From a virus (taxonomy: Duplodnaviria > Heunggongvirae > Uroviricota > Caudoviricetes), in IMG/VR virus record IMGVR_UViG_2690315831_000002: a DNA stretch of 37,164 nt; one strand, given 5' to 3'. Made by a program: the position numbers and the translations under genes. A model generated the notes under the pieces. That model did no database searches. It was not told where the DNA came from and saw only the letters and a program-made list of their open reading frames with translations. Of this stretch, positions 2,405 through 16,319 are shown piece by piece (position 1 is the stretch's first letter; every line of letters starts with the position of its first letter).

Positions 2405-2596
2405 TCATACCTGGTCTCTCTCATCTGCTTCTGCTTTCGCCACCATCATTTCCAGCTTTTGTGAAAGGGATGCGGCTAACGTATGAAATTCTTCGTCTGT
2501 TTCTACTGGTATTGGCACAAACCTGACTCCAATTTGAGCGAGGCTATGTGCCATCTCAATGCTCGTTCTTAACTCAACAGGAGATGCTTTGTGCAT
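2405..2596 (-). CDS. Hypothetical small protein
   Basis: 63-aa ORF between the small-ORF block and exo, same orientation. Confidence 0.3.
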   Translation of the reverse strand: MHKASPVELRTSIEMAHSLAQIGVRFVPIPVETDEEFHTLAASLSQKLEMMVAKAEADERDQV

Positions 2597-2747
2597 ACAG
2601 CTCCCCGTTTATTATTTATCTCCTCAGCCAGCCGCTGTGCTTTCAGGGGATTTCGGGTAACAGAAAGGCCGGGAAATACCCAGCCTCGCTTTGTAACGGA
2701 GTAGACGAAAGTGATCGCGCCTACCCGGATATTATCGTGAGGATGCT

Positions 2748-3428
2748 TCATCGCCATTGCTCCCCAAATACAAAACCAATTTCAGCCAGTGCCTCGTCCA
2801 TTTTTTCGATGAACTCCGGCACCATCTCGTCAAAACTCGCCATGTAATTTTCATCCCGCTCAACCACGACATAATGCAGGCCTTCACGCTTCATTCGTGG
2901 GTCATAGTTGGCAAAGTACCAGGCATCTTTTCGTGTCACCCACATGCTGTACTGCACCTGGGCCATGTAAGCCGACTTTATGGCCTCGAAACCACCGAGC
3001 CGGAACTTCATGAAATCCCGGGAGGTAAACGGGCATTTCAGCTCAAGGCCATTGCCGTCACTGCATAAACCATCGGGAGAGCAGGCGGTGCGCATACTTT
3101 CGTCGCGATAGATGATCGGGGATTCAGTAACATTCACGCCGGAAGTGAATTCAAACAGGGTTCTGGCGTCGTTCTCGTACTGTTTTCCCCACGCCAGCGC
3201 CTTAGCATTAACTTCCGGAGCCACACCGGTGCAAACCTCAGCCAGCAGGGTGTGGAAGTAGGACATTTTCATGTCAGGCCACTTCTTTCCTGAGCGGGGC
3301 TTTGCTATCACGTTGTGAACTTCTGAAGCGGTGATGACGCCGAGCCGTAATTTGTGCCATGCATCATCCCCCTGTTCGACAGCTCTCACGTCGATCCCGG
3401 TACGCTGCAGGATAATGTCCGGTGTCAT
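2748..3428 (-). CDS. exo: Lambda-type 5'-3' exonuclease (Red-alpha, YqaJ family)
   Basis: 226 aa, same length as lambda Exo; translation matches lambda Exo as recalled; followed by bet and gam in the lambda order. Confidence 0.85.
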
Positions 3429-4210
3429 GCTGCCACCTTCTGCTCAGTGGCTTTCTGTTTCAGGAATCCAAGAGCTTTCACTGCTTCGGCCTGTGTCAGT
3501 TCTGACGATGCGCGAATGTCGCGGCGAAATATCTGGGAACAGAGCGGCAATAAGTCGTCATCCCATGTTTTGTCCAGGGCAATCAGCAGAGTGTTAATCT
3601 CCTGCATGGTTTCATCGTTAACCGGAGTGATGTCGCGTTCCGGCTGGCGTTCTGCAGTGTATGCGGTATTTTCGACAATGCGCTCGGCTTCATCCTTGTC
3701 ATAGATACCAGCAAATCCGAAGGCCAGGCGGGCACACTGAATCATGGCTTTATGCCGTAACATCCGTTTGGGATGCGACTGCCACGGGCCGGTGATTTCT
3801 CTGCCTTCGCGGGTTTTGAATGGTTCGCGTCGGCATTCATCCATCCACTCGGTAACGCAGATCGGATGATTACGGTCCTTGCGGTAAATCCGGCATGTAC
3901 AGGATTCATTGTCCTGCTCAAAGTCCATGCCATCAAACTGCTGGTTTTCATTGATGATGCGGGACCAGCCATCAACGCCCACCACCGGAACGATGCCGTT
4001 CTGCTTATCAGGGAAGGCGTAAATTTCTTTCGTCCACGGATTAAGGCCGTATTGGTTGGCGACGATCAGCAATGCGATGAACTGCGCATCGCTGGCATCG
4101 CCTTTAAATGCTGTCTGGCGAAGAGTGGTGATCAGTTCCTGTGGGTCGACAGAATCCATGCCGACACGTTCAGCCAGCTTCCCAGCCAGCGTTGCGAGTG
4201 CTGTACTCAT
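3425..4210 (-). CDS. bet: Red-beta single-strand annealing recombinase
   Basis: 261 aa, same length as lambda Bet; 4-bp overlap with exo; translation matches lambda Bet as recalled. Confidence 0.9.
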
Positions 4211-4998: not shown

Positions 4999-5039
4999 GC
5001 TGCGGATCTAAGCGGTCATCGCAACGGTGAAGTTATAAA

Positions 5040-5140
5040 TTTTGTGATACCAACATCGATGCAATAGCATGACAATAGCAATAGCTATTGGTGTGGTCAA
5101 TAGCAATTAGTATTGATAATGTTTGATATACTTGTTCTGA
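5040..5140. promoter_or_regulatory. OL-like operator/promoter region
   Basis: Four 'CAATAGC' half-sites including the 12-bp perfect palindrome 'caatagctattg', plus 'ATTGATAATG'; the same half-site and 'ATTGATAATG' recur in the cI-cro intergenic region. Confidence 0.45.
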
Positions 5141-5381
5141 TTGATAATTAAATGAATTTTTATAAAAAAGAGTATGAAGACTTATTGGTGTGGCTGAAAT
5201 TTGTACAGCTTTAATGTGCCTCGTGACAGAGGGGCATCGGGTTGTGGTGAGCTCGGTAGGTTGGCAGCAAATTTAATCGAATATTGGTAGTCTGAGTTCT
5301 TATGTGTATTTTTTTAGTCAGTTGCTAAATGATACATAAATGACTTATTAGCCCCGCCATCGCTTTGTACGGGGCGTTTAT

Positions 5382-6989
5382 TTAATTTATCTTTTCAACA
5401 TTTCCATGAATCAACAAGTCGTAGGCAAGAAATAGTTTCCTATACTGGGTTTTTAAATTGTCAACGTCGCATGCCTTGAATTGAACAAACGCTTCTTTTT
5501 TAACATAATCTTCAATCTCCTCTTTGGGGATATTTTTTATGTTCTTAATGACTATAGACAATTCTTTGTACTTTTTGAACGTTGCATCCTTTATATCTTT
5601 GATGTTGGTGTAAATTTTATTTGCATTGATTTTATCTAAGGTGATTTTATTGAGCAAGTCGTCTAGTTTTCCGTGGCGTTCAATGCGTTGATTTAGTTTT
5701 AACACATATTTAGCTGGCAAACTTAACTCTTTCAAATTACATGAGGTTATAGTTTTTGAAAATGGAAGTTGTAATGAGTTTACTGAACCTAATATGAAAT
5801 CTATGGCTAATTTATTAGATATTTCATTTTTATTAAATAAGTAGTCTTCAAGATAATTTATTTCTTTAACTTGTGTGAATACATACTTTTTATCGCCTAG
5901 AGCAACAACTAAATTTTTTCCTTGTTTAACACTTTCTTCAAGTCTGTCTAAGTCAGAAGGTGAAACCAATAGAGTATCTAAGTGCCCTTTTTCACCCTCA
6001 TTAATGATAAGTGTTTTAATGGCTCTTTGATACCTTAAAACATCATAAGGTGAGAGCCCTTCATCAACAGCACTGATCTCATCATAGATCTGTTTATAGT
6101 TATCTGTTTTAACAGATGTATATGTAATTTGTAGCTGTTGATCGGTAATCTGTTTTGGTACTACTTCCTGTTCATTCTCTTTATATTCAATCAAAATTAT
6201 TCTTTCAGCTGATTTTCGACCATCTTCTCTAGGTAGTTGTGAGGAAAAATCAGAAAGAAGTTTCTTTACATTCCTGTCAGTTAAAGAATATCCAAGAAAA
6301 ACTATTGGATTTTTAATCATGTTAGATAGTATCTTGGCACTAATGAGTATAGATTTGTTGTCATATTTTTCGTAATCATCTTTATTTATGATTATTGAGT
6401 GTGGATCCTTTATATCACCATGTATTTTGTATAACTCACTCCAGCCAATAGTATCTTCGAAAAAACCATTATTTCCAATATAGAGTTTTGGAATTACATT
6501 TTGCTCTTGAAGTAAATTTTCTATGAAAGCATCATAATTTGTAGTGATGATTATCTTGGCCTTTTTTATTAATGTTTTAAATGATGCTAATTCATCAAGA
6601 TTTACATCCTTTCTGATTGTGTTATTAGAAAATCTTTGGCATATGGCGTATTTAAATGGTGAAATATCTTCACTAAAAACCCTCTTGGCATCTAGTCCAT
6701 TTAATTTTAATTTGCCAGTCCTAAACAATAGATTGTAATCATTTTCAATTTTACTTGCTGCCTCTGTATAAATCTTATGATCGATATCATTATCACTGTT
6801 ATTTTTATGTGATTCTTTTATTGTTAAAAGATAACTATAGAAATCATTTGTGGGATTTGTTATTTTCCAATACTCGTTTAATAGCTCTTCCCACGTTGGG
6901 TAGTTCTCTAAATATCTTTTTGAAATGCCTGAGCCAATAAAGACTATTGGGTAATTTTTGAATTCAAAATTTTTTTTTGACATATCCAT
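5382..6989 (-). CDS. SIR2-like (ThsA-type) putative NAD+ hydrolase with unassigned C-terminal domain; candidate anti-phage effector
   Basis: 535 aa; SIR2 hallmark motifs 'PIVFIGSGIS', 'IITTNYDAFIE', 'YKIHGDIKDP', 'KDDYEKY', 'PIVFLGYSLTDRNV' resemble the Thoeris ThsA SIR2 domain as recalled; very AT-rich versus flanks; sits between OL and cI (lambda rexAB position), co-oriented with cI; GGA 5 nt upstream of ATG. Confidence 0.8.
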   Translation of the reverse strand: MDMSKKNFEFKNYPIVFIGSGISKRYLENYPTWEELLNEYWKITNPTNDFYSYLLTIKESHKNNSDNDIDHKIYTEAASKIENDYNLLFRTGKLKLNGLDAKRVFSEDISPFKYAICQRFSNNTIRKDVNLDELASFKTLIKKAKIIITTNYDAFIENLLQEQNVIPKLYIGNNGFFEDTIGWSELYKIHGDIKDPHSIIINKDDYEKYDNKSILISAKILSNMIKNPIVFLGYSLTDRNVKKLLSDFSSQLPREDGRKSAERIILIEYKENEQEVVPKQITDQQLQITYTSVKTDNYKQIYDEISAVDEGLSPYDVLRYQRAIKTLIINEGEKGHLDTLLVSPSDLDRLEESVKQGKNLVVALGDKKYVFTQVKEINYLEDYLFNKNEISNKLAIDFILGSVNSLQLPFSKTITSCNLKELSLPAKYVLKLNQRIERHGKLDDLLNKITLDKINANKIYTNIKDIKDATFKKYKELSIVIKNIKNIPKEEIEDYVKKEAFVQFKACDVDNLKTQYRKLFLAYDLLIHGNVEKIN

Positions 6990-8150: not shown

Positions 8151-8696
8151 ATGACTATGCAACCACTTACATACCAACAGACTAGCGGATTTAGCCCGAC
8201 TGCGGTGATAAATCGTTCTCAAATAAAACAGGTGCCAGGCCACGAAAAAATCCGTGATGCCGTTCGCGCGTGGTCGGCTGCAGATAATCAGGATGTTGTT
8301 GCCGCACTCATTGTGAATGAGTATCGGGAGCAGGGCGGCGGCACCATCGATTTCCCTGATGATGTCAGCCGTGCACGCCAGAAGCTGTTCCGCTTCCTCG
8401 ATAACAAATTCGATTCTGAAAAATACCGAAATAACGTGCGTGAACTGACCCCGGCAATTCTGGCGGTACTACCGCTGGAATATCGCGGCCACCTGGTTGA
8501 GCAGGATAGCTTCATGGCTCGGCTGGCTGAAATGGAAAAGGAACTCTGTGAGGCAAAGCAGGCGGTCATTCTCAACGCACCACGCCACCAGAAACTGAAG
8601 GAAATGAGTGAAGGTATTGTGTCGATGTTTCGTGTGGACCCGGATCTGGCTGGTCCATTAATGGCGATGGTTACCACCATGCTGGGGGCAATATGA
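8151..8696 (+). CDS. YdaT-like regulator (functional CII analogue)
   Basis: 181 aa following the cro-like gene; 'EYREQGGG' and 'LTPAILAVLPLEYRGHL' resemble Rac YdaT ('EEYLRQGGG', 'LIPAILAILPRELRHRL') as recalled. Confidence 0.55.
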   Translation: MTMQPLTYQQTSGFSPTAVINRSQIKQVPGHEKIRDAVRAWSAADNQDVVAALIVNEYREQGGGTIDFPDDVSRARQKLFRFLDNKFDSEKYRNNVRELTPAILAVLPLEYRGHLVEQDSFMARLAEMEKELCEAKQAVILNAPRHQKLKEMSEGIVSMFRVDPDLAGPLMAMVTTMLGAI

Positions 8697-8782
8697 CAGG
8701 TTCAGAAATGGCGAAAGCCGGTCTGCGGGAACAGAGCCGACTTTCAGGTGCAAATCGTAACGCACTCATTGCGGAAGGAATT

Positions 8783-9712
8783 ATGGCAAACACTGCTGAG
8801 ATATTCAATTTTCCAGTGCCGGATGAGGCACAAAAGGAGCCGCGCGTGGCAGATCTCGATGATGGTTATACGCGCATTGCAAATGAGTTGCTGGAAGCTG
8901 TGATGCTGGCCGGATTAACACAGCACCAGCTTCTGGTCTTCCTGGCTGTCATGCGCAAAACATATGGCTTTAATAAAAAACTGGATTGGGTGAGCAACGA
9001 GCAACTGTCCGAATTGACCGGGATATTGCCGCACAAGTGTTCTGCTGCAAAAAGTGTTCTGGTAAAGCGTGGGATTTTGATTCAGAGCGGGCGGAATATC
9101 GGTATTAATAATGTGGTCAGTGAATGGGCAACATTACCCGAATCAGGTAAGAAAAATAAAGTTTACCTGAAAGAGGTAAATTTACCTGAATCAGGTAAGA
9201 AAAGTTTACCCAAATCAGGTAAAGGCGTTTACCCGAATCAGGTAAACACAAAAGACAAACTAACAAAAGACAATATAAAACCTTTTTCGTCCGAGAATTC
9301 TGGCGAATCCTCTGACCAACCAGAAAACGATCTTCCTGTGGTGAAACCAGATGCTGCAATTCAGAGCGGCAGCAAATGGGGGACAGCAGAAGACCTGACC
9401 GCCGCAGAGTGGATGTTTGACATGGTGAAGACCATCGCGCCCTCAGCCAGAAAACCGAATTTTGCAGGGTGGGCTAACGATATCCGCCTGATGCGTGAAC
9501 GTGATGGACGTAACCACCGCGACATGTGCGTGCTGTTCCGCTGGGCATGCCAGGACAACTTCTGGTCCGGTAACGTGCTGAGTCCGGCCAAACTCCGCGA
9601 CAAGTGGACCCAGCTCGAAATCAACCGAAACAAGCAACAGGCTGGCGTGACAGCCGGCAAACCAAAACTCGACCTGACGAACACTGACTGGATTTACGGG
9701 GTGGATTTATGA
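8783..9712 (+). CDS. O: Replication initiator O (divergent N-terminal iteron-binding domain, lambda-like C-terminal domain)
   Basis: Start at 'MANTAEIFNF' with GGAAGG RBS, paralleling lambda O 'MTNTAKILNF'; C-terminal half from 'SSENSGESSDQPENDL' to 'TDWIYGVDL' near-identical to lambda O as recalled; contains iterons; stop overlaps P start. Confidence 0.85.
   Translation: MANTAEIFNFPVPDEAQKEPRVADLDDGYTRIANELLEAVMLAGLTQHQLLVFLAVMRKTYGFNKKLDWVSNEQLSELTGILPHKCSAAKSVLVKRGILIQSGRNIGINNVVSEWATLPESGKKNKVYLKEVNLPESGKKSLPKSGKGVYPNQVNTKDKLTKDNIKPFSSENSGESSDQPENDLPVVKPDAAIQSGSKWGTAEDLTAAEWMFDMVKTIAPSARKPNFAGWANDIRLMRERDGRNHRDMCVLFRWACQDNFWSGNVLSPAKLRDKWTQLEINRNKQQAGVTAGKPKLDLTNTDWIYGVDL
9136..9245. repeat. 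Replication origin iterons inside O
   Basis: Five direct repeats of about 15 bp 'ACCYRAAWSAGGTAA' (starts about 9136, 9165, 9184, 9208, 9231), each with internal dyad 'TTACC..GGTAA', followed by an A-rich tract (9245-9290); same layout as lambda ori within O. Confidence 0.75.
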
Positions 9713-10410
9713 AAAACATCGCCGCACAGATGGTTAACTTTGACCGTGAGCAGATGCGCCGGATCGCCAACAATATGCCGGAACAGTACGACGAAAAGCC
9801 GCAGGTACAGCAGGTAGCGCAGATCATCAATGGTGTGTTCAGCCAGTTACTGGCAACTTTCCCTGCGAGCCTGGCTAACCGGGATCAGAACGAACTGAAC
9901 GAAATCCGCCGCCAGTGGGTTCTGGCTTTCCGGGAAAACGGGATCACCACAATGGAACAGGTTAACGCAGGAATGCGCGTAGCCCGTCGGCAGAATCGAC
10001 CATTCCTGCCATCACCCGGGCAGTTTGTTGCCTGGTGCCGGGAAGAAACATCCGTTACCGCTGGGCTGCCAAACGCCAGCGAGCTGGTTGATATGGTTTA
10101 CGAGTATTGCCGGAAGCGTGGCCTGTATCCGGACGCAGAGTCTTATCCATGGAAATCAAACGCGCACTACTGGTTGGTTACCAACCTGTACCAGAACATG
10201 CGGGCCAATGCGCTGACTGACGCGGAATTACGGCGTAAAGCTGCCGATGAGCTGACCTGTATGACCGCGCGAATTAACCGTGGTGAGGCGATACCTGAAC
10301 CAGTAAAACAACTTCCTGTCATGGGCGGTAGACCTCTAAATCGTGCACAGGCTCTGGCGAAGATCGCAGAAATCAAAGCTAAGTTCGGACTGAAAGGAGC
10401 AAGTGTATGA
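9709..10410 (+). CDS. P: Replication protein P (DnaB helicase loader)
   Basis: 233 aa 'MKNIAAQMVNFDREQMRRIANNMPEQYDEKPQV...' near-identical to lambda P as recalled. Confidence 0.95.
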   Translation: MKNIAAQMVNFDREQMRRIANNMPEQYDEKPQVQQVAQIINGVFSQLLATFPASLANRDQNELNEIRRQWVLAFRENGITTMEQVNAGMRVARRQNRPFLPSPGQFVAWCREETSVTAGLPNASELVDMVYEYCRKRGLYPDAESYPWKSNAHYWLVTNLYQNMRANALTDAELRRKAADELTCMTARINRGEAIPEPVKQLPVMGGRPLNRAQALAKIAEIKAKFGLKGASV

Positions 10411-10613: not shown

Positions 10614-11633
10614 ATGTGTTACAGTAATGTTACAGATCGTGATCTTATGGGGCAAATTGCTACTAAACTAAATGACTATCGAAACCCTCCTCAAGGTGGC
10701 ATGAGCATTGATCATGTTAATCGATGGATTAATCAATTTGAGTTAACTGATAGGCGATTTGTCTTAGAGGAAACGGACCGATTAATGGGGATTGGATACT
10801 TTTCTGAGAACGACTATCGCAGGGTTATTAGTAGTATCGCCACTGATGAGCAAAATGAAAGTTTCTTTCAAACTGCAGCGTTTCTCGATATTCAGAACCA
10901 AGGTACCAGTCAATCTGAGTTTTTGGATTTACTTCGAGATGATTGTGTAGAAGAATTCAACGTTGTGACCAGACTTTCACAACGTCAAAGAGTTAGTTCA
11001 TTCCGTGAATTTATTTACGTTGACGATGTTTTATTCTCCGGAGCTAAGGCAATCAATGATTTAATTTGGTTTATTGAGCACTTTAAACTCCAAAATATTA
11101 CAATATTGGTGTACTTTTTAGGTGGGCACACATATTCAACATGGAAGATAAAAGACCAACTTGAACGAAGATTTGCGGGCAGAAATATTTCAGTTGGCGT
11201 TGGTGGAGGTGAGTTTGTATTTGTTGAAAATAAACTCCGAAATAGTTCGAATTCGGAGGTTTTATGGCCAAAAGCGCAAAGTGTATCAATACCTGAATGG
11301 GCTGACGGTCAAATACATTATTTAGGAACATATCGAAACGGTTACGTCGCGAATAAAATTTTTCCTGATGAGCAGAGACGTGATCGTTTTGAAACTATTC
11401 TGACAAAAGTTGGGTTTGATATCCTTGGTCATAGTCAAAATCCCTCTGCTGTCATAAAGCCCTTAGGCTTTTCAACTTTCAATGGTGTTGGGTTTGGCGG
11501 AACTATCTTTACTTTCAGAAACTGCCCAAATAATACCCCTCTCGCGTACTGGTGGGGAACTTATCTTCGAACAGGAAATAGAGCTCTGGATTGCTGGTAT
11601 CCACTTATGAAGCGTAATGTGTATAATCGGTGA
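10614..11633 (+). CDS. Hypothetical 339-aa protein, upstream partner of a NADAR protein (candidate toxin/effector)
   Basis: ORF with AGGA 7 nt upstream; stop overlaps the start of the next gene (GTGA); lower GC than lambda-like flanks; only a weak PRTase-like loop 'FIYVDDVLFSGAKAI'; no confident fold assignment. Confidence 0.7.
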   Translation: MCYSNVTDRDLMGQIATKLNDYRNPPQGGMSIDHVNRWINQFELTDRRFVLEETDRLMGIGYFSENDYRRVISSIATDEQNESFFQTAAFLDIQNQGTSQSEFLDLLRDDCVEEFNVVTRLSQRQRVSSFREFIYVDDVLFSGAKAINDLIWFIEHFKLQNITILVYFLGGHTYSTWKIKDQLERRFAGRNISVGVGGGEFVFVENKLRNSSNSEVLWPKAQSVSIPEWADGQIHYLGTYRNGYVANKIFPDEQRRDRFETILTKVGFDILGHSQNPSAVIKPLGFSTFNGVGFGGTIFTFRNCPNNTPLAYWWGTYLRTGNRALDCWYPLMKRNVYNR

Positions 11634-12247
11634 TCATGAGCTATAGACTATACCTGTTTCACAACACAGTTTCTTTCAGGAAAACCACCGAGAAATGGGG
11701 TGGTCTTTCCAACATGGCCAAAGGATATCCGCTCTTCGTTAATGGTATACCCATTCAATCGAGTGAAATTCTTTACCAAGCATGCCGATATCCAGACTAT
11801 CCAGATATCCAAAGGGTTATTATTACCCAAGCCAACCCTTACGAAGCTAAACAAACCGCCAGAACCTTCGAGGCCAAAACCCGTACTGGTTGGGAAAAAA
11901 ATCGAGTTTCGGTAATGAAATGGTGTGTCTGCGTTAAGCTTTGCCAGAACTGGGAATCGTTCTTCGCGCTATTGGATAGCACAGGAGATCATGACATTGT
12001 TGAGCACTCAGAGAAGGACCAATTTTGGGGGGCTAGTAAGGACTCCGAAGGTAACTTTTATGGCATGAACGTGTTAGGTCGTATCCTTATGGATGCGAGA
12101 GATATTGCAAGAAAGAAGGGGCCTGCAGGGTTTGCTACGATACCGCCGCTACCCTTGGATAGGTTTCTTCTGCTCGGGGAGCAAATACGTGATGTCACTT
12201 TCTCTCCACCACCGATGGATTCAGGGCAAAGCTTATCGCTTTTTTAA
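11630..12247 (+). CDS. NADAR (YbiA/DUF1768-like) domain protein
   Basis: 'GWEKNRVSVMKWCVCVKLCQNWESFFALLDSTGDHDIVEHSEKDQFWGASKDSEGNFYGMNVLGRILMDARD' parallels E. coli YbiA as recalled; translationally coupled to upstream gene (GTG 11630 or ATG 11636). Confidence 0.8.
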   Translation: MIMSYRLYLFHNTVSFRKTTEKWGGLSNMAKGYPLFVNGIPIQSSEILYQACRYPDYPDIQRVIITQANPYEAKQTARTFEAKTRTGWEKNRVSVMKWCVCVKLCQNWESFFALLDSTGDHDIVEHSEKDQFWGASKDSEGNFYGMNVLGRILMDARDIARKKGPAGFATIPPLPLDRFLLLGEQIRDVTFSPPPMDSGQSLSLF

Positions 12248-12531
12248 TGTGGCTGTTGTTCCTCTCTCGGTCGTGACAGTTCTGCAACCCCGCTTTGGCG
12301 GATTTTTTATAAATTATGCAACTTATTGACTTGATACCGATATTTCAGACTTTAACATAGCAGCCAAAATCTAGGACGAAGGCGACAAAGTAAACGTTGA
12401 ATTGGCTGCCATCGGCGTAGCGTTCAAAGAGTGGATGAATATGTCGGTTATAGCGGAAGCGGTGATGCGTGAGCAGACATCGCTCTGCCCAAGGCATCCG
12501 CCCCTCGACATCTTAAGCAGGAAGGTGAAAA

Positions 12532-13014
12532 ATGATAAGTGCAGAAGGACTGCAGCGGTTACTTAATTTATCGGAGCCTCCATCTGATGAACTGATTGAT
12601 GTTTATCTTCAATTCAGCATGATTTTTCCTAGGGTCGAACAAAGTTTTTTTGGTGGCTTTGCTAAGGGGGAAGACAGTTTAAATTATGCTCGAACGTTAC
12701 TTGACGCCGGGATAAAGGTGCCCAACGAACTTTTTCACGATTTTAAGCAGAGATACATTTTGAACGGGGATGCGCAGGAAAGACTTGACGCCCTCTGTTT
12801 CGGTCGAGAGAGAGATAAGCGGGGAATAGTTAATGGGCTTCAAAATGACGCAGCAACAGATCTAAACACCATGTCTACAGTATTAAAGATAGTTATAAGG
12901 ATAAGAAATAACCTTTTCCACGGAAATAAAGACGCTTATCTTTTTGTTGATTCTCAAGAGCAAGCGCAACTATTGAGATGGTGCGTGAGATTTCTCCAAG
13001 GATTATTAAATTAA
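12532..13014 (+). CDS. Hypothetical 160-aa protein with possible HEPN-like Rx4HG motif
   Basis: ORF with AGGAAGG RBS; 'RNNLFHG' near the C-terminus fits the Rx4-6H HEPN pattern; lies between the NADAR operon and the nin genes. Confidence 0.55.
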
Positions 13015-13203
13015 TCTGCCTTTGATTTTCACTAATCAACTCGCCATAATCATGTCATCGGAGCCTGAACAACTCCGGTGACTTCTGCGCTAAACGGGGA
13101 CGTTTATGCGCACATACAATCCAAACTCTCTTCTCCCTTCACAGATGCAGAAATGCACCTGCGATTTTTTGCATCCAGCGCCTGACCTCTGCGGAGGTGA
13201 AGC

Positions 13204-13659
13204 GTGAACCTACCACAAGATGGCATCAAACTGCATCGTGGTAACTTCACCGCTATCGGTCAGCAGATCCAGCCTTATCTGGAGGACGGCAAATGCTTTC
13301 GCATGGTGCTTAAACCGTGGCGCGAGAGACGCAGTCTTTCCCAGAATGCACTTAGCCACATGTGGTACAGCGAAATCAGTGAATACCTCATAAGCAGGGG
13401 GAAATCGTTCGCTACTGCAGCATGGGTAAAAGATGCTCTCAAACACACATACCTCGGTTATGAAACCAAAGACCTGGTTGATGTCGTAACCGGTGAAATC
13501 ACCACTATTCAGTCGTTACGCCATACCTCCGATCTTGATACCGGAGAGATGTATGTCTTCCTGTGTAAGGTTGAAGCCTGGGCGATGAATATTGGCTGCC
13601 ACCTGACTATTCCGCCGAGCTGCGAGTTCGAGCTGCTGCGCGACAAGCAGGAGGCGTAA
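13204..13659 (+). CDS. NinB/YbcN-like recombination protein
   Basis: 151 aa, same length as DLP12 YbcN; '[12 protein letters not shown]' resembles the NinB 'RSLDQNRKLW' motif; followed by ninE-ybcO-rusA as in DLP12; GTG start. Confidence 0.65.
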
Positions 13660-15515: not shown

Positions 15516-16319
15516 CTATTTCTTTTTGGGAAGTGGATACTTTAAGCTAACATTTTGAGTTTCTATATCTCGTGGCCCTCGAGTTTTATCATAAAAATAC
15601 CAGATATTAAATTTTCTCTCAGTGTGCCATGTATCATATTGCAAGTGATCCCAGCCTAAATATGAAGCAACATAGTTTGATACTCTTATTTTGGCTTCAG
15701 ATGAAGCTTTTCCTTGATATGCGCACATAACCGCACCTAAGAAAAAATCGGCTAGCTGAATGTTTTCAGATGCTTTAGAGTCTTTTGTCACTACACTGCT
15801 GATTATCCCTTTACGACCAAATTTTCTATTCAATATGTTATTGGCAATAACATTTAGTTCTTCATCAGCCTTTTTATAACGAGATGCGATAGGATCAACT
15901 TCAATCCTGAAGTAACTGTCTCTTTCAGGGTGTGCAGAAATTACAGAGCTAATTTTTGTGGTAATGAGATTTGTGAAGTGCTTTCTCCTTGCCAGGTCAT
16001 AATCTCCATTATGAAATGCCTTATTTACTATTGATTTTTCAACCACGATACAATGAAAAGCTAGCCAAGGAACTCTAAAGAATAAGTCGATCAGCTCAAG
16101 ATAAAATTCAGAGTATCTTTTTGAATGGGCTTTTTGCCATTTTATTTCTTCAAAAAAAACATGTTTTCTGCGTAGTTCTCTGATTAGTTGACAGAAATCC
16201 CCACGGCGTTGGTACTTCATCCACAGACTGCCAAAGCCGTAGAAACGTTGTCCATCAATGCCAGATTCATCGCAAGCAATATGCCAAATTAACTTACCAA
16301 TGTTATCTTTTTCTGTCAT
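15516..16319 (-). CDS. DUF3800-like protein (uncharacterised; candidate defence/moron gene)
   Basis: 267 aa with N-terminal 'IACDESG' and C-terminal 'QLAD', fitting the DES / QxxD description of DUF3800 as recalled; AT-rich; antisense between Q and the holin. Confidence 0.7.
   Translation of the reverse strand: MTEKDNIGKLIWHIACDESGIDGQRFYGFGSLWMKYQRRGDFCQLIRELRRKHVFFEEIKWQKAHSKRYSEFYLELIDLFFRVPWLAFHCIVVEKSIVNKAFHNGDYDLARRKHFTNLITTKISSVISAHPERDSYFRIEVDPIASRYKKADEELNVIANNILNRKFGRKGIISSVVTKDSKASENIQLADFFLGAVMCAYQGKASSEAKIRVSNYVASYLGWDHLQYDTWHTERKFNIWYFYDKTRGPRDIETQNVSLKYPLPKKK

Follow-up and report, generated by a model that had tools for sequence, protein, structure and literature searches.

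Solo HEPN proteins and the gene under study

HepS (STM14_3211), which is encoded by the Salmonella prophage Gifsy-1, is a solo HEPN anticodon nuclease of the abortive-infection type; it has no partner gene, forms an inactive tetramer, and cuts tRNA anticodons once it has been activated by a phage tail-tip protein (PMC13043305). Here we compare with it, and with the HEPN superfamily at large, a gene for a protein of 160 amino acids (aa) carried by a 37,164-nucleotide (nt) viral sequence (IMG/VR record IMGVR_UViG_2690315831_000002, Caudoviricetes), which is called the window below and which is a lambdoid prophage. An earlier reading of this DNA, here termed the original prediction, had described the open reading frame (ORF) at 12532-13014 as a cargo gene with a possible HEPN-like motif. 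The gene and the codons on which the comparison turns are the following:

12532..13014, plus strand: 160-aa gene with an ATG start, a phrog_27260 member with an invariant HEPN-like motif (ORF reading)
12637..12639, plus strand: codon of E36, an invariant acidic residue in the helix 19-40 and a candidate second active-site residue (alignment and structural model)
12751..12756, plus strand: codons of R74 (invariant) and Y75 (at least 90% conserved) in the helix 65-77 (alignment and structural model)
12898..12930, plus strand: codons of R123-I-R125-N-N127-L-F-H130-G-N-K133, the putative catalytic Rx4H/Rx6H signature (80-sequence alignment)

The HEPN domain is defined by a four-helix up-down core, which takes its inserts between helices 2 and 3, and by an Rx4-6H motif that either closes helix 3 or opens the loop leading to helix 4, the latter helix being frequently kinked (PMC3710099). 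The residue directly after the arginine is polar (N, D or H), and HEPN families often carry a conserved upstream acidic residue, typically in an Ex3[KR] context, which lies near the motif in space (PMC3710099). In the HEPN toxin SO_3166 the active site, RNIAVH, has been validated by mutation, and it shows the same R-N-x3-H layout as the 160-aa family.

Like HepS, the protein from the window is a single small protein with an Rx4H motif (R100-H105 in HepS, R125-H130 in the 160-aa family), and its gene stands alone in a lambdoid accessory region 3' of the replication genes; both HepS and the 160-aa family are without a conserved partner and have homologs across distant bacteria. With the HEPN superfamily in general, including the single-gene systems AbiJ, AbiV and SO_3166, the family shares an invariant R-[N/H]-x3-H that closes a long helix and is followed by the last helix, the small size, a conserved acidic residue further upstream (E36, a candidate counterpart of the HEPN one), and the occurrence in restriction-modification (R-M) operons, prophages and mobile islands. 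It differs from the superfamily in the large helical region (residues ~46-104) by which the model separates the motif helix from the first long helix, and in the invariant R74, R123 and K133, which are outside the canonical definition. The family itself is uncharacterised, unannotated and horizontally mobile, while the kind of protein that it resembles most is already known from prophages and defence islands, namely the solo HEPN proteins of abortive infection.

By analogy with HepS, we tentatively propose that the 160-aa protein is a solo HEPN-like, metal-independent ribonuclease (RNase) acting as a defence effector, carried by the prophage as a moron; this is the reading that we favour, while stopping short of calling it probable. 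The signature R123-x-R125-N-N127-x-x-H130-G-x-K133, together with E36 and R74, would most likely constitute a HEPN-type metal-independent RNase active site. The moron would be expressed by the prophage from the cargo slot between the replication gene P and ninB, and its product would be held inactive as a homo-oligomer until a component of an infecting phage switches it on, whereupon the activated effector would cleave tRNA or mRNA and the infection would be aborted. This mechanism is modelled on the solo HEPN abortive-infection proteins (HepS and the lactococcal AbiD/F/J/V type); the HEPN fold, the RNase activity, the oligomerisation, the trigger and the defence phenotype are inferred. The recurrence of family members in defence islands and in the cargo of mobile elements argues for it. 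If the proposal is true, the single-protein abortive-infection systems of the HEPN type, a small set in which few members, HepS among them, have a worked-out mechanism, gain an unannotated and taxonomically broad family. The gene is small, is present in E. coli prophages and offers obvious point mutants (R125A, H130A and E36A), which makes it easy to test.

Extent of the family and conservation of the motif

A word-indexed search retrieved only eight close relatives of the 160-aa protein, and an exhaustive HMMER search with the profile of these eight (E<=1e-3) retrieved 174 cluster representatives at 50% identity, mostly 155-180 aa long. According to a second profile search, the family ranges over Alpha- and Gammaproteobacteria, Bacteroidota, Ignavibacteria and one Nitrososphaeraceae archaeon; all the matches listed in that search are 'hypothetical' and carry no precomputed Pfam domain. 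The window protein matches phrog_27260 of PHROGs v4 over 160/160 positions (E=1.2e-91), as do all 80 of the aligned family members, and since phrog_27260 is a function-unknown group with no annotation, membership is uninformative with respect to function. The window protein has no match among the Pfam, NCBIfam or PADLOC models. Pfam searches with the 80 members, with the consensus sequence and with the longer members yielded nothing significant, and the same was true for PADLOC; the longer members contain no informative domain fusions.

The stretch 'IRNNLFHGN', which the original prediction had placed near the C-terminus and on which it had based its call, does occur there, comprising residues 124-132, ~30 residues away from the C-terminus. 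Its bare form has little value of its own: R.{4,6}H is present in 36 of the 61 mechanically delimited ORFs of at least 100 aa in the window and in 36% of shuffled versions of the 160-aa protein, so that Rx4-6H in a single sequence is at chance level. The extended form RN...HG, for comparison, appears in 0.06% of the shuffles. The motif is significant because it is conserved across the family, not because it occurs in one sequence. In the 80-sequence alignment, which reaches down to ~20% identity, residues E36, R74, R123, R125, N127, H130 and K133 are invariant, and F28, Y75, L88, G131 and L155 are conserved in at least 90% of the sequences. Both spacings, R125-x4-H130 and R123-x6-H130, are kept in all 80 sequences, the residue after R125 (N126 in the window) is N or, in a few members, H, and the pattern R.R[NH]N..H[GA].K is retained in 78/80. 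The R/H motif, whose variation among homologs had been named beforehand as grounds for abandoning the HEPN idea, is thus invariant in the 80 sequences. The label of a "weak, motif-only call", attached to that idea at the time, suits the motif taken alone and understates the case now that its invariance in the family is known.

Structural model and profile comparisons

AlphaFold2 (AF2), supplied with a deep alignment, returned five consistent models with a predicted local distance difference test (pLDDT) score of 90.5-92.0 and a predicted template modelling (pTM) score of 0.89. The model is all-helical, with helices at residues 4-11, 19-40, 46-58, 65-77, 81-88, 93-104, 110-129, 131-138 and 141-159. 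In the model (pLDDT 92) the helix 110-129 carries the motif at its C-terminal end; a break at H130/G131 and the helices 131-138 and 141-159 follow. In the family, the placement of the motif, its Rx4-6H spacing and the polar residue after the arginine agree with the HEPN definition, the correspondence between the predicted helices and those of the HEPN core being an assumption. As for the HEPN-like helical bundle proposed as a check on the original prediction, the model agrees insofar as it is all-helical and has the motif where a long helix ends, and Foldseek gave no significant HEPN match. The same division holds for the HEPN idea as a whole, which gains from the invariant motif, the all-helical model and the fitting placement, and which has no significant fold or profile match to lean on.

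Among the hidden Markov model (HMM) matches below threshold, HEPN families recur: the best is HEPN_RiboL-PSP (1e-4, in 2/80 members), followed by SWT1_3rd (0.015) and HEPN_Apea (0.14), with CARF_HEPN and Csx1/Csm6 scoring 0.01-0.02. This recurrence is suggestive of a remote relationship without amounting to proof. We found no detectable profile similarity to an established HEPN family, and a comparison by hhalign with a single DUF4145 sequence was likewise not significant.

Several further observations weigh against an RNase of the HEPN type. Foldseek searches with the model found nothing below E=1 in PDB or BFVD, a family-profile search of the PDB sequences found nothing relevant, and hhalign assigned a probability of 0.2% to the match with a 28-sequence profile of DUF4145, a member of the HEPN clan. 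Among the 80 members, none reaches the threshold of any Pfam, NCBIfam or PADLOC model. The usual Ex3[KR] context is missing around the invariant E36, which the model puts in the long N-terminal helix (19-40). None of the 50,697 deposited phage genomes contains the gene. Finally, several E. coli copies are frameshifted, namely those of E. coli A35 (L002 5133-5616, left unannotated by the Prokaryotic Genome Annotation Pipeline, PGAP) and of the viral contigs L017, L018 and L019 (~5001-5484); the gene is therefore dispensable, and it is decaying in some lineages. Taken with the points in its favour, these results suggest that the 160-aa protein is best described as HEPN-like by motif and by the modelled placement of the motif, with its membership of the superfamily unproven.

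Because the fold and profile tests are negative, we have to consider, as the main alternative, that the protein is an all-helical one with a function other than that of an RNase (binding, regulatory, anti-defence or another enzyme class), whose likeness to Rx4H proteins is convergent or coincidental. The failure of every fold search and profile comparison to link the family to HEPN speaks for this, as do the nine helices of the model, which is not a simple four-helix bundle, and the frequency of bare Rx4-6H by chance. What makes it rather unlikely in our view is that seven polar or charged residues are invariant at ~20% identity, which is typical of a catalytic site, and that the extended RN...HG, rare by chance, matches validated HEPN sites; an anti-defence role in particular fits poorly with the chromosomal copies that are flanked by Gabija- and Lamassu-like genes or located in an R-M operon.

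The gene and the theta remnant upstream of it

Comparison of the 160-aa ORF with its orthologs from Salmonella, Enterobacter and Klebsiella aerogenes gave pairwise ratios of nonsynonymous to synonymous substitution rates (dN/dS) of 0.10-0.16, and comparison with a 98%-identical E. coli allele gave 0.20. Because of these low values, the ORF is a genuine gene under purifying selection. The signals that precede it are the following:

12331..12358, plus strand: promoter-like site TTGATA-16-TAACAT, 5' of the theta remnant and of the ORF (consensus scan)
12345..12535, plus strand: decayed pseudogene of a DNA polymerase III theta subunit (holE/hot-like) (PGAP, translation and DNA alignment)
12519..12528, plus strand: Shine-Dalgarno-like sequence AGGAAGGTGA, which coincides with the final codons of the ancestral theta gene (read directly)
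12532-12535, plus strand: ATGA overlap between the stop codon of the theta remnant and the start codon of the 160-aa ORF (read directly)

The sequence AGGAAGGTGA is located five bases 5' of the ORF, and in the DNA alignment the stretch AAGCAGGAAGGTGAAAAATGA at the ribosome-binding site hardly varies among E. coli, Salmonella and K. aerogenes. The claim that 12532-13014 is an ORF with a good ribosome-binding site is borne out. The site at 12331-12358 is a putative promoter judged from its sequence; the consensus scan found fewer such sites than were present in shuffles, which gives it weak support, and the same sequence is kept in the version of the prophage that carries alternative cargo.

The leader of the ORF had been taken for GC-rich and for the possible source of a short upstream peptide. 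Its GC content is about 47.5%, and the leader turned out to be the remnant of the theta gene, which disposes of the peptide. Read in three frames and aligned with the intact theta genes of Salmonella and Klebsiella, the remnant in the window has lost its start, contains an in-frame TAG at 12372-12374 and has suffered a 55-nt internal deletion after 12476; in the 99.8%-identical record of E. coli A35, PGAP annotates a partial theta gene at this position. Another frame still contains the last theta codons, K-Q-E-G-E-K-stop, which are conserved across genera; they form the ribosome-binding site of the ORF and give rise to the ATGA overlap.

In Salmonella, Enterobacter and K. aerogenes an intact theta gene always precedes the ortholog of the 160-aa gene. 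Such an arrangement brings to mind a type II toxin-antitoxin pair, in which the ORF would be the toxin and the upstream theta-like protein the antitoxin: the upstream gene is small (76-85 aa), it overlaps the family gene by ATGA in most cases, in Salmonella, Klebsiella and several distant family lineages, and in 6 of 21 viral sequence clusters the family member has a theta gene or remnant next to it. The remaining 15 clusters and all non-enterobacterial contexts, however, have no theta. Moreover, the lesions that inactivated theta differ between the lineage of the window and that of E. coli IAI1, with the ORF intact in both; among the best 80 of at least 583 phage theta loci there is no family member within 2.5 kb; and the position directly 3' of theta is occupied by more than 20 unrelated gene clusters, encoding 50-216 aa (lambdoid phage contigs L071-L150, ~2740-3400). 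We therefore rejected theta as a dedicated partner or antitoxin, a role for which the probability appears very low. Because it is without the family in the 80 loci examined, is followed by a variable slot and has decayed independently, theta is a marker of a hypervariable slot and not a partner of the 160-aa ORF.

Relation of the gene to DS-32

In the window, a low-GC cargo block (GC content 37-47%, as against 50-56% in the flanks) comes after the replication genes O (8693-9712) and P (9709-10410), and the place directly after P is filled by a complete DS-32 anti-phage system (10614-12247, plus strand):

10614-11633, plus strand: DS-32A, PRTase-like (NCBIfam DS32_1, E=9e-91, above the cut-off; Pfam PRTase-CE)
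11630-12247, plus strand: DS-32B, NADAR (NCBIfam DS32_2, E=6e-78, above the cut-off; Pfam NADAR)
12434..13020, no strand assigned: swappable cargo segment that contains the 160-aa gene (homology to the alternative version ends at ~12433 and resumes at ~13021)

The cut-offs for DS32_1 and DS32_2 are the equivalog cut-offs of NCBIfam. DS-32 has been validated, and is defined, as a two-gene anti-phage system (DefensePredictor preprint). The original prediction had put the 160-aa ORF directly after the NADAR cassette and had entertained it as a third component of that cassette. The two are on the same strand and in the same low-GC block, and the ORF starts 285 bp 3' of the NADAR stop codon, with the theta pseudogene separating the two. 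The co-occurrence check that had been suggested for the NADAR cassette goes against a functional unit of three genes: of 5,426 complete E. coli genomes, just 3 have the combined block of DS-32 and ORF, compared with 56 genomes that have the ORF. In most of the DS-32 prophages of E. coli, an unrelated segment of ~305 bp with a 67-aa gene replaces the segment with the ORF, and outside the lineage of the window DS-32 is beside no ortholog. In the light of this distribution and of the two-gene definition we ruled out the ORF as a third DS-32 component, an idea that now seems barely credible. Because its co-occurrence with DS-32 is rare, its segment is swapped and its orthologs are found without DS-32, the 160-aa ORF is a cargo unit independent of DS-32; the two adjoin in the same prophage cargo slot, yet they are separate units that are swapped independently.

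The 67-aa gene found in place of the ORF (WP_000151203.1, without Pfam match) is present at L001 5123-5326 in E. coli STN0717-20 and in many other DS-32 prophages.

DUF4145 as a recurrent neighbor

The more common order of genes in E. coli (IAI1 and L011-L020) is P, a winged helix-turn-helix (wHTH) gene, a DUF4145 gene, the theta pseudogene, the 160-aa ORF and ybcN. DUF4145 (PF13643) belongs to the HEPN clan and is common in R-M neighborhoods; it is absent from the window, shows no detectable homology to the 160-aa family (see the hhalign result above), and recurs as an upstream neighbor in the E. coli prophages and in the R-M operon of Bacteroidetes. More precisely, it lies just 5' of the family member in L011-L020 and IAI1, in L047, and in the Bacteroidetes loci L069 and L070, whereas it occurs in 0/80 control loci that have theta only.

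One could imagine on this basis a two-gene system composed of DUF4145 and the family member, of which the window would retain an orphaned half after DS-32 had replaced DUF4145. The upstream position in the main E. coli lineage, in L047 and in L069/L070, set against the 80 controls, supports such a pairing. It is contradicted by the lack of DUF4145 beside the 75-81% identical orthologs of Salmonella, Enterobacter and K. aerogenes, as well as in most of the 21 viral clusters and other genomic contexts, and by the fact that the ORF is intact and under purifying selection where DUF4145 is missing; furthermore, DUF4145 is by itself common in R-M and defence neighborhoods. We consider the pairing improbable. 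The adjacency is a lead for a possible functional link, although most lineages are without DUF4145.

Genomic contexts of the family and turnover in the slot

On the 3' side of the cargo block the window continues with NinB/YbcN, NinE, YbcO, RusA, YlcG, Q and the lysis genes, the first of which forms the border of the slot:

13204..13659, plus strand: NinB/YbcN, the conserved right border of the cargo slot (RefSeq ybcN; Pfam NinB below threshold, E=1.4e-4, 22.1 bits against a cut-off of 23.8)

No Rfam family, tRNA or flanking repeats were found at the insertion. The resulting map of the hotspot in the lambdoid prophage is P, variable cargo, theta, variable cargo and ninB. DS-32, DUF4145, NACHT and the 160-aa family are shuffled within it, which makes the hotspot useful for the mining of further systems, and the slot 3' of theta can be searched for defence or counter-defence genes.

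Where theta and the family occur side by side, the theta proteins are 54-78% identical, compared with 23-28% identity of the adjacent family members to the protein of the window. Since theta is conserved while the family diverges, turnover in the slot is fast, and this contrast of identities is consistent with an arms race. A particular case is L047, in which DUF4145 and theta are nearly identical to those of IAI1 and are followed by a distant allele of the family (175 aa, about 26-30% identical). This comparison (L047 3740-5306 with L151, i.e. E. coli IAI1, 2492-3983) looks like the replacement of an allele within a conserved frame.

Beyond prophages of this type, we found a family member in a type I R-M operon of Bacteroidetes, with the order HsdM, HsdS, DUF4145, family member, GmrSD_N and HsdR, and another between a Gabija-like pair and a Lamassu-like operon (locus L152). 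Other sites include Tn7-like cargo, an islet with an integrase, Fic and DUF4365, and small variable islets; no neighbor shared across the family lineages was found. These contexts would also accommodate a broader view, according to which the family represents an unrecognised class of solo sensor-effector immune proteins. These would form a HEPN clade that has diverged very far, or else have a helical fold of independent origin with a convergent Rx4H RNase site, and they would spread as single-gene cargo via Tn7-like elements, defence islands, R-M operons and prophage hotspots; the replacement of the allele in L047 relative to IAI1 would then reflect selection for different phage triggers. We regard this view as doubtful.

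Other genes in the slot and beside family members

In a prophage of Enterobacter mori (L005 6875-8776) a 633-aa NACHT gene is located ~390 bp downstream of the ortholog, in place of ninB, and is likely another defence cargo in the hotspot. In two loci, one from Flavobacterium and one from a metagenome contig, the gene directly after the family member is a conserved one of 93 aa (L068 5475-5756 and L153 4477-4758; the two copies are 75% identical); it was not seen elsewhere and may be a lineage-specific partner. A 438-aa neighbor in Alteromonas (L065), which ends with 'RSKIVHG' and which we considered as an ApeA-type HEPN protein, was dropped for want of Pfam support.

The window contains, between the Q antiterminator and the lysis genes, a 267-aa DUF3800 gene (15516-16319, minus strand) with a GC content of 34-39%, which matches the candidate defence model PDC-M04A of PADLOC (E=3e-34) and phrog_3732. 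Another DUF3800 protein, with a weak score (21.9 bits, cut-off 21), is encoded directly 5' of the family member in L152 (2906-3964). The RefSeq hypothetical protein WP_072114080.1, of 33 aa, is encoded at 13107-13208 (plus strand), 5' of ybcN/ninB and overlapping it, and this region is conserved with phage 82, in which orf33 and promoter-like signals are annotated (X92588).
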